From positions 1-15,087 of the IMG/VR virus record IMGVR_UViG_2698536392_000024: a DNA stretch of 15,087 nucleotides; one strand, written 5' to 3'. The stretch is from a virus (lineage: Duplodnaviria; Heunggongvirae; Uroviricota; Caudoviricetes). The translations under genes and the position numbers were made by a program. The notes under the pieces were generated by a model, which had not been told where the DNA came from, did not search any database, and saw only the letters and a program-made list of their open reading frames with translations. Numbering within the stretch: the stretch's first letter is position 1; every line of letters starts with the position of its first letter. This document shows, piece after piece, positions 12,150-12,673 of this stretch.

Positions 12150-12311
12150 GTTGGCAGCCTCTTCGTTAGGGTTAATAAACCCACCGCAGGAAACGCCAAT
12201 TTCGCTGGCGGTGGACTGTGCGGGGTTGGCGTAACCGGTTAACGAAGAACCCGGCGCGGATTGCTCCGCCCCCATACAGCCCACCATTGATAAGGTGTGA
12301 CTATCCGGCAC

Positions 12312-12335
12312 AAAAAAACACGCAGGGCGCGTGTT
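12312..12335 (-). terminator. Intrinsic terminator inside the leader of the minus-strand replication operon
   Basis: Minus-strand RNA AACACGC-GCCCU-GCGUGUU followed by a U-run (7 A on the plus strand at 12312-12318); about 160 nt upstream of the first small gene at 12149. Confidence 0.6.
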
Positions 12336-12574
12336 GTGCGCTTCGTTAAATACCAGGACGCCAATCCGGCACCAGATTTTGCTGGTGCAGATAAATCATA
12401 GCCCTGGCTGGCAGTGGCGATCAACAGGTTTTTTACACCCGCTTTATTCAGGTTGTGCGAGTCCCGCCCTTGCGGGTGTGTGGTATGATTTAACATAGCT
12501 ACCTCGATACTGTTGCTATCGTTGGTGGTTAGAGGCTGCGAAAGGACGGCAATCCTTTCCAGCCTCGTTTGCAT

Positions 12575-12673
12575 TGAGTGATAGTCACTCAACTGGATTC
12601 CAGTATAATCACCAAGTGGAATCCACTTCAAGCATTTTGTTTTGATCTTTTTCGTGTATACTGGATTCCAGTA
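12575..12673. promoter_or_regulatory. Divergent promoter/operator region: three 11-bp palindromes plus a 17-bp palindrome
   Basis: CTGGATTCCAG at 12593-12603 and 12661-12671, GTGGAATCCAC at 12616-12626, TGAGTGA-tag-TCACTCA at 12575-12591. Plus-strand -10-like TATACT at 12657-12662 overlaps the third palindrome; minus-strand TTGAAG-N18-TATACT promoter candidate (plus coordinates about 12603-12631) has palindromes in its spacer and at its start site. Confidence 0.5.

Follow-up and report, generated by a model that had tools for sequence, protein, structure and literature searches.

The region between the regulatory and the replication genes of an island found in Escherichia coli, positions 12,150 to 12,673 of a stretch of viral DNA (IMG/VR record IMGVR_UViG_2698536392_000024, Caudoviricetes), is a P4/P1-type RNA switch rather than an anonymous leader. 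We refer to the whole analyzed stretch of 15,087 nucleotides (nt) as the window. In our reading, to which we assign a probability of roughly 0.82, the region is a P4-type RNA immunity module that belongs to a capsid-forming satellite resembling the phage-inducible chromosomal islands (PICIs) and that acts by a P4-like mechanism. What carries this reading is the identity and order of two RNA genes, the complementarity of one of them to four target sites, the conservation of a proximal promoter, and an open reading frame (ORF) that is nested over the RNA genes in relatives and disrupted in the window. A preliminary description of this DNA, made from the letters alone, had proposed a leader of about 450 nt with an intrinsic terminator and further hairpins, and had likened it to the P4 immunity region; this likeness proved to be true homology, as P4 contains the same Rfam RNAs in the same order, as well as the Icd-like gene.

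Unless stated otherwise, the features described below lie on the minus strand and their coordinates descend from 5' to 3'. The first RNA gene encodes an isrK/seqA-like RNA (12388-12313), which matches Rfam family RF01394 with 69 bits against a gathering score of 50. It comprises a first hairpin (12388-12369), a second hairpin that presents the target site b1 (UUGGCGU, 12364-12358) in its loop, a further target site, a1 (UUAACGAAG, 12349-12341), and a Rho-independent terminator (12335-12310), which forms the 3' end of the RNA and has an equivalent in most relatives. The terminator, which the preliminary description had already recognized as canonical, consists of the stem AACACGC/GCGUGUU (12335-12317) followed by seven U residues (12316-12310). 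Hairpin 2 lacks one base (CC-GG), a feature in which the window stands alone among 61 distinct sequences; the intact RNA of a relative, locus L009, scores 80 bits, so that the deletion costs about 11 bits. Assignment to the isrK family is further in line with a promoter directly upstream and the Rho-independent terminator at the 3' end, both of which are conserved, which is evidence at the level of sequence. Five related loci (L093, L097, L098, L115 and L117) have no U-run terminator after the isrK-like hairpins and no long in-frame ORF either (8 to 15 open codons). This joint loss of terminator and ORF fits with an ORF that exists to override the terminator, although the five loci may represent one lineage.

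The second RNA gene encodes a C4/CI-like antisense RNA (12291-12204), which matches the full RF01695 model (positions 1-87) with 72.6 bits against a gathering score of 45; on the same model, the CI RNA of P4 scores 74.9 bits. It is composed of a closing stem, hairpin 1 (12269-12256), hairpin 2 with the recognition loop a' (12249-12239), and a junction segment b' (ACGCCAA, 12232-12226). The mature form is predicted to extend from about 12285 to 12206, with ends placed after those of P4 CI and P1 c4. In P1 and P4, the C4-type RNA is excised from a longer transcript by RNase P, and a tRNA-like stem is followed by NCCA. Directly after the closing stem of the window RNA lies GCCA (12209-12206), and by inspection most aligned relatives have a CCA-like tail. 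The preliminary description had mentioned the small processed RNA of P4 without recognizing this gene, which is its counterpart in the window, with the processing itself predicted by homology. Further downstream, a hairpin (12214-12181) with a 7-bp stem (CCACCGC/GCGGUGG) presents a third target site, b2 (UUGGCGU, 12199-12193), in its 20-nt loop. The 5' arm of this hairpin shares bases with the 3' strand of the C4 closing stem, which makes the two structures mutually exclusive. The last target site, a2 (UAACGAAGAG, 12168-12159; feature 12158..12168), coincides in part with the Shine-Dalgarno sequence (GAAGAGG) that precedes the first operon gene. When P4 itself was scanned with the same Rfam models, the isrK match (8692-8615) and the C4 match (8507-8420) were likewise followed by a Shine-Dalgarno sequence and by ATGGCTAC, which starts the Icd-like gene.

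The C4-like RNA is complementary to target sites on either side of it. Its loop a' is exactly complementary to UUAACGAAG in the isrK-like RNA and is also complementary to UAACGAAGA(G) at 12168-12159, while its junction b' is complementary to the UUGGCGU motif, which is presented twice, by the loop of isrK hairpin 2 and by that of the 12214-12181 hairpin. These four complementarities (9 and 7 nt upstream; 9 and 7 nt downstream) did not occur jointly in any of 5,000 dinucleotide shuffles, which bears out the proposed check for P4-style complementarity between leader segments. For the comparison with relatives, loci were collected from two sources: viral contigs encoding an Icd-like protein, and genomes (one per species) containing the conserved pattern of ribosome-binding site and ATG. 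The latter search returned 64 stretches from Enterobacterales and Aeromonas, about 60 of which are genuine. Around 45 loci (L039-L083) encode an Icd-like protein of about 83% identity and have no isrK/C4 leader, and these were excluded from the covariation counts. The downstream pairings and the C4 stems were counted on an alignment of 69 distinct sequences, and the upstream sites on 61 distinct loci. We counted pairs column by column; duplex energies for the long-range C4-target interactions were dropped, as they were dominated by the stems and separated cognate from non-cognate pairs only moderately.

In this alignment, the internal stems of C4 (helices 1-3) are paired in 99.5-100% of the cells, and 17 of their 25 pairs have changed on both sides. 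The target pairings behave in the same way: a' with a2 is paired in 93.9% of the cells (7 of 10 pairs changed on both sides), b' with b2 in 98.8% (6 of 7), and the 12214-12181 hairpin in 97.1% (5 of 7). For the C4 and target helices, none of 500 shuffles reached the observed values, and sliding the partners by one to three columns lowered pairing to 34-47%; the slid controls of the 12214-12181 hairpin gave 31-66%. Upstream, b1 is paired with b' in 100% of the cells and a1 with a' in 92%, compared with 69% and 57% after row permutation. The structure of the region is beyond chance, and the covariation check that the preliminary description had proposed comes out in favor of its hairpins, the C4 stems and the target pairings alike. 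The relatives contain 27 types of the loop (a), 13 types of the junction (b) and 40 combinations of the two, some of which have clearly been reassorted; locus L014, for example, has the a-type of L004 together with the window's b-type. In other words, the recognition sequences vary freely, yet always together with their targets, a pattern that marks a functioning antisense system with many specificities. As a side observation, the b segments of L006 (junction GUGAGAA, target UUCUCAC) are the exact complement of those of P4, which is L003 in our set (junction UUCUCAC, target GUGAGAA), so that the C4 RNAs of these two elements could pair with each other. Locus L019, moreover, has a second module downstream of its Icd-like gene (2720-2924; C4 at 74 bits, isrK-like at 37.6 bits, which is below threshold), and therefore two immunity modules in tandem.

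Two promoter-like sites precede the module. The proximal one (12424-12395), the equivalent of the P4 promoter PLE, has a -35 box TTGATC (12424-12419), an 18-nt spacer and a -10 box TATGAT (12400-12395), with 9 of 12 consensus matches. It is invariant in close relatives, its -10 box aligns with TATAGT of PLE, and distant relatives have a promoter-like sequence at the same distance. The site lies directly upstream of isrK hairpin 1, and transcription from it is predicted to start at about 12388. The distal site (12631-12602), which resembles a sigma-70 promoter, also has 9 of 12 matches (-35 box TTGAAG at 12631-12626, 18-nt spacer, -10 box TATACT at 12607-12602). It lies about 446 nt upstream of the ATG at 12149, and in that respect the promoter that the preliminary description had placed some 450 nt before the first gene does exist as a site; the promoter conserved in the family is, however, the proximal one. 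The distal site is common only to relatives with the same upstream module (L006 and L032). In many relatives, the similarity to the window begins only at about 12434 or at about 12536-12541, which places the distal promoter outside the conserved module, although it may be real nonetheless. Because of this conserved proximal promoter, an RNA ending at about 12313 is predicted to be around 76 nt long, instead of the roughly 280 nt that had been suggested.

The second part of that earlier description which did not stand is that the region is purely a leader. In the relatives, the sequence corresponding to 12496-12150 is an Ash/Eta-like ORF: a single frame that begins at the ATG (12496-12494 in the window) spans isrK, the terminator and C4 and joins the Icd-like ORF in the same frame. 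The frame of the Icd-like ORF is open for at least 80 codons upstream of its ATG in 77 of 89 distinct loci, with a median open length of 146 codons compared with 8 and 43 in the other two frames. The translation start is intact in the window, with a conserved CUAACCACCAACGAUAG (12532-16), a Shine-Dalgarno sequence GAGG (12505-02) and the ATG (12496-94). A deletion of 1 nt at about 12367/12368 shifts the frame, leaving an N-terminal fragment of 85 codons (12496-12239) that stops inside loop 2 of C4; owing to this deletion, the window does not contain the P4-type arrangement in which translation of the eta ORF, in frame with kil, crosses seqA, the terminator and CI. Both the intact ORF of L009 and the Eta protein of P4 match the Pfam family Phage_ASH (PF10554), exactly over the part that overlaps the RNA genes. 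The Phage_ASH protein family and the isrK and C4 RNA families thus describe the same DNA. The Prokaryotic Genome Annotation Pipeline (PGAP) accordingly places partial pseudogenes, called "ash family" and "Icd-like", over the C4 gene (12180-12287). An ORF of 323 amino acids (aa) at 12239-13210, taken from a mechanical ORF list, was rejected as a gene, as it runs antisense to a gene of the ylcI family and only its last 85 codons match the Eta-like start.

The first gene of the operon (12149-11961) encodes an Icd/Kil-like protein of 62 aa, which matches NF033153, the family of Icd-like host cell division inhibitors, with E = 2e-16; the Kil protein of P4 matches the same family with E = 2e-21. A direct BLASTP comparison of the 62-aa protein with P4 Kil gave no alignment, and it takes the NF033153 profile to reveal their kinship. 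Downstream of the icd-like gene lie a hypothetical ORF, a DUF4222 gene and a D5-type primase with a frameshift, and a Pfam scan of these genes showed no Ant, KilA or Bro domain. The region had been described as lying upstream of the replication genes, which is correct in that a primase lies downstream in the operon, but the first gene is a division inhibitor of the Icd/Kil type.

From these parts, we propose the following mechanism, which we infer by homology with P4, P1 and Gifsy-1, taking the details of P4 from secondary descriptions. The proximal promoter, constitutive by analogy with PLE, would start transcription at about 12388, and most transcripts would probably stop at 12335-12310 to yield an IsrK/seqA-like RNA of about 76 nt. 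Transcripts that read through would contain the C4/CI-like RNA, which would be cut out as a stable RNA of about 80 nt, with RNase P generating the 5' end as in P4 and P1. Its a' and b' segments would then pair with a2 and b2 just upstream of the Icd/Kil-like gene and hide the ribosome-binding site, so that the untranslated transcript could be ended early, by Rho-type termination, before the replication genes are reached. Both segments could also pair with a1 and b1 in the IsrK-like segment, whereby either termination would be reinforced or C4 would be titrated by the short RNA. The operon would be expected to escape if transcription of the region came from the distal promoter with its operator-like palindromes: the distal transcript would be translated from the ATG at 12496 as the Ash/Eta-like ORF, and ribosomes would run through the terminator and the RNA gene, as they do for P4 eta. 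Conditional read-through, one of the two outcomes that the preliminary description had considered, is thus the behavior that would be expected here.

Several points weigh against this reading. The activity of the promoters, the efficiency of the terminator, the processing of C4 and a dependence on Rho are predictions. The eta/ash ORF is broken and both the primase and the large terminase are frameshifted, so that there may be no replication left for the switch to govern. The c4-a1b1 motif (RF03163) reaches 28.1 bits, which is under its gathering score of 46.7; P4 itself falls just under this threshold with 44.1 bits, and the same bases of the window are covered by the isrK match. Finally, in Gifsy-1 the homologous IsrK activates, rather than represses, downstream translation (PMC4825925). 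In the minimum-free-energy fold of 12388-12140 (z = -3.2 against dinucleotide shuffles), the b1-a1 part of isrK is paired in cis with the a'-b' part of C4, which matches the fold described for Gifsy-1; given this match and the activation by IsrK, the upstream interaction may be of either sign. A control of the Gifsy-1 type would mean that the long transcript is silent in cis and that the short IsrK-like RNA acts in trans as an activator or anti-C4 decoy which opens the ribosome-binding site, so that accumulation of the small RNA would switch the operon on instead of keeping it off. The order of the parts is the same in both systems, the cis fold resembles "structure A" of PMC4825925, and IsrK raises translation of orf45-anrP more than 100-fold (PMC4825925). 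On the other hand, P4 is the closest system in layout and in its Icd/Kil-like first gene, and there the processed CI RNA is the immunity factor, while seqA is required to establish immunity (PMC3632133, PMC10111431). Moreover, conservation is equally strong for the complementarity of C4 to a2 and for that to isrK, which fits repression at the ribosome-binding site. On balance we consider positive control rather unlikely, noting that it and the P4-type model are not mutually exclusive.

Much less probable, in our view, is that the region is a single non-coding leader of about 450 nt that is transcribed from the distal promoter, has no internal promoter and no coding function, and gives either a small RNA of about 280 nt or conditional read-through. 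The promoter-like site at 12631-12602 speaks for it, transcripts started there and ended at 12313 would have a length of about 280 nt, and the stretch downstream of this site folds better than dinucleotide shuffles (12596-12389; z = -4.5). Yet in many relatives the module starts at about 12434 and thus comes without the distal promoter, the promoter at 12424-12395 aligns with PLE and is invariant in close relatives, and what follows from 12496 is, in relatives, an open frame that has its own ATG and Shine-Dalgarno sequence. Somewhat improbable, to about the same degree as positive control, is that the module is a relic, inherited from a functional ancestor, of no use in this decayed island, and still present only because its erosion would need more time. 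The three frameshifts (in eta/ash, the primase and terL) speak for it, as does the deletion that puts the isrK-like RNA 11 bits under the intact L009 copy (69 vs 80). Against it, no damage is seen in the C4 RNA, the proximal promoter, the terminator or any of the four target sites, whose complementarity is complete; identical copies exist in several complete genomes, and the C4 RNA of a resident island could still provide immunity to newly arriving elements of its own kind. The P4-type immunity module hence remains our preferred reading.

Upstream of the module, three operator-like palindromes were found in a repeat search, two with the sequence CTGGATTCCAG (12593-12603 and 12661-12671) and one with the sequence GTGGAATCCAC (12616-12626). 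They overlap two promoter-like sites on opposite strands that partly overlap one another, namely the distal promoter and a plus-strand site (12582-12609) of the ylcI/ynfO-family gene. This gene (12693-12872, plus strand) encodes a YlcI/YnfO-family protein of 59 aa (NF041551) with a weak match to PF07704 (Rv0623-like transcription factor, E = 0.027). The protein is a candidate for a small repressor that would bind the three palindromes as its operators and control the distal promoter.

A predicted hairpin (12566-12532) precedes the Eta-like start, and at least 40 distinct relatives have a hairpin of different sequence at the same place, before CTAACCA, the Shine-Dalgarno sequence and the ATG. 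This element precedes not only the Eta-like ORF but also several Icd-like or small ORFs in the relatives, with varying hairpin sequences. The hairpin has a U-run on the opposite strand in relatives, and in L019 (2078-2114) its counterpart is predicted there as an intrinsic terminator. On the plus strand of the window, an extended -10 element, TGGTATGAT (12477-12485), becomes TATAAT in two relatives through an amino-acid change. Together these features give a hint of a cis-antisense RNA on the plus strand, at about 12494-12575, that would lie over the translation start. Two Rfam matches in this area were not accepted as family membership: one to the R1162 plasmid antisense RNA (12567-12495; 28.5 bits against a threshold of 55) and one to SymR on the opposite strand in L009 (2080-2152; 32.7 bits against 61). 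They serve only as a lead to such an RNA. Capsid-forming PICIs are usually thought to be switched on through AlpA. More speculatively, all of these elements could be joined into one picture, which we regard as quite unlikely as a whole: the two-site RNA immunity, with its at least 40 combinations of interchangeable specificities, would be the real gate on the replication operon in capsid-forming PICIs, overridden by Ash/Eta translation from a distal promoter under a repressor of the YlcI/YnfO type at the three palindromes. An undescribed plus-strand cis-antisense RNA (about 12494-12575) opposite the Eta/Icd start may add a further layer to such a gate; it may resemble the IncQ countertranscript or the sar RNA of P22, with a terminator that is the hairpin of the 5' untranslated region on the other strand.

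The window is 100% identical to E. coli 2013C-4830 (NZ_CP027325.1), in which the island lies between cspD/yljB and clpS, and several complete E. coli genomes contain identical copies of the island. Its gene content was derived from Pfam scans of 20 ORFs, with which the PGAP annotation agrees. The island starts with an integrase, an AlpA-type regulator and, on the other strand, the 59-aa YlcI/YnfO-family gene, which are followed by the region studied here. Next come the Icd-like gene, DUF4222, the D5-type primase, a single-stranded DNA-binding protein (SSB) and PerC, and the remaining genes encode an HK97-type capsid, a protease, a portal, head-tail adaptors, an HNH protein and the small and large terminases (TerS and TerL). 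The full set of components described for capsid-forming PICIs (PMC10085698) is present, and these scans identified no tail or lysis genes. The core of P4-like satellites (psu, delta, sid, epsilon, alpha) was not found in the Pfam scans of the 20 ORFs. The element is therefore a capsid-forming PICI-like satellite, partly decayed, and not a P4-like satellite. Its three frameshifts lie in the eta/ash ORF (about 12367/12368), in the D5-type primase (9532-11360; 134 aa + 535 aa) and in terL (1322-2982; 257 aa + 297 aa), the latter two being marked as frameshifted by PGAP. The island is probably no longer autonomous, while the RNA parts are intact in this copy.

The island further encodes a PerC-family transcriptional activator (8309-8701, minus strand; PF06069, E = 5e-43); the E. 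coli PICI EcCIMP1 has been linked to repression of the LEE (locus of enterocyte effacement) pathogenicity island (PMC11773190). Two intrinsic terminators of nearly the same sequence, GCCGGAG(C/A)AATCCGGC and then a T-run, lie on the minus strand, one (8286-8301) after this gene and the other (7932-7947) after a 100-aa ORF (7959-8261). The motif GCCGGAGCAATCCGGC is exact at 7932-7947 and has one mismatch at 8286-8301. The preliminary description had reported hairpins at 12181-12214 and 12253-12272, both of which are in the sequence, and had likened the latter to these terminator stems. The hairpin at 12272-12253 (GGCGGAGCAAUCCGCGCC), the core of which is C4 hairpin 1, does resemble GCCGGAGCAATCCGGC, and C4 hairpin 1 and the terminators at 7932 and 8286 have a common GGAGCAAUCC core. 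The resemblance is loose, however: the copy at 12255-12270 has 3 mismatches and no T-run, and it forms an internal arm of C4 rather than a terminator.

The region is a clear case of a known system and not a new one: P4 immunity, the c4-icd-ant locus of P1 and P7 and IsrK of Gifsy-1 are established systems, to which the window adds a member with its own specificity. Specialists would expect this result, as C4 and isrK matches in Gram-negative PICIs have already been published (PMC10111431). What the analysis adds is quantitative evidence for the pairings, a correction of the promoter and of the length of the RNA, and the finding that the nested ORF is broken. The comparative data amount to a catalogue of immunity specificities, with 27 loop types, 13 junction types and 92-100% target pairing. 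In addition, the analysis explains why "ash family" and "Icd-like" pseudogenes are called over a C4 RNA gene, with the Pfam Phage_ASH domain being the translation of the isrK-C4 region, and it provides a concrete model, open to testing, of how such islands are kept silent and might keep out relatives of their own type.

Among the known systems, P4 is matched part by part. IsrK is a structural homologue of P4 seqA and C4 is a homologue of the P4 CI immunity RNA (PMC4825925, PMC3632133); the immunity-specific termination is blocked when eta, transcribed from an upstream promoter, is translated (PMC10111431), and both the termination control and its override by eta translation have been described (PMC4825925, PMC3632133, PMC10111431). 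P4 and the window have in common the promoter, the isrK/seqA hairpins, the terminator, the C4/CI RNA, the target hairpin, the target on the Shine-Dalgarno sequence and ATGGCTAC with the Icd-like gene, as well as the complementarity of C4 to both upstream and downstream targets, the long Phage_ASH ORF nested over the RNA genes (in relatives of the window) and a gated operon with a primase. They differ in their recognition sequences, with a' being CUUCGUUAA in the window and CCUGUGAAG in P4 and b' being ACGCCAA and UUCUCAC, respectively, which implies a different immunity specificity. The spacer between the terminator and C4 is 21 nt in the window and about 107 nt in P4. Whereas the Eta-like ORF is coupled to an alpA homologue in P4, it starts from its own 5' untranslated region here, and it is frameshifted in the window. 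The element itself is of the capsid-forming PICI-like type, with no psu, sid or delta seen in the Pfam scans.

The logic of c4-icd-ant in P1 has been described (PMC8198154), and the immI region of P1 and P7 resembles the window in two ways: an RF01695 RNA and its targets are part of one transcript, and the gene that comes next encodes an Icd-like division inhibitor (for P1 by description, PMC8198154). In place of the antirepressor gene ant that defines immI, the window has DUF4222 and a primase after the icd-like gene, and its upstream, terminated RNA of the isrK type is a feature of P4 and Gifsy. In the isrK-orf45 (STnc1160)-anrP locus of Gifsy-1, IsrK likewise has its own promoter and a Rho-independent terminator with partial read-through, with a stable C4-like RNA downstream (PMC4825925), and the middle of isrK pairs in cis with a downstream segment; there, an antirepressor is regulated and activation by IsrK is documented, whereas icd-like and replication genes follow in the window. 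The closest setting is that of the Gram-negative and helper-embedded PICIs, several of which have Rfam C4 and isrK matches between the integration and replication zones, inside Bro-network (Phage_ASH) genes (PMC10111431). The arrangement of these "Bro zone" RNAs is exactly that of the window; that study contains no analysis of pairing, specificity types or promoters, to which the window adds a capsid-forming, partly decayed case.

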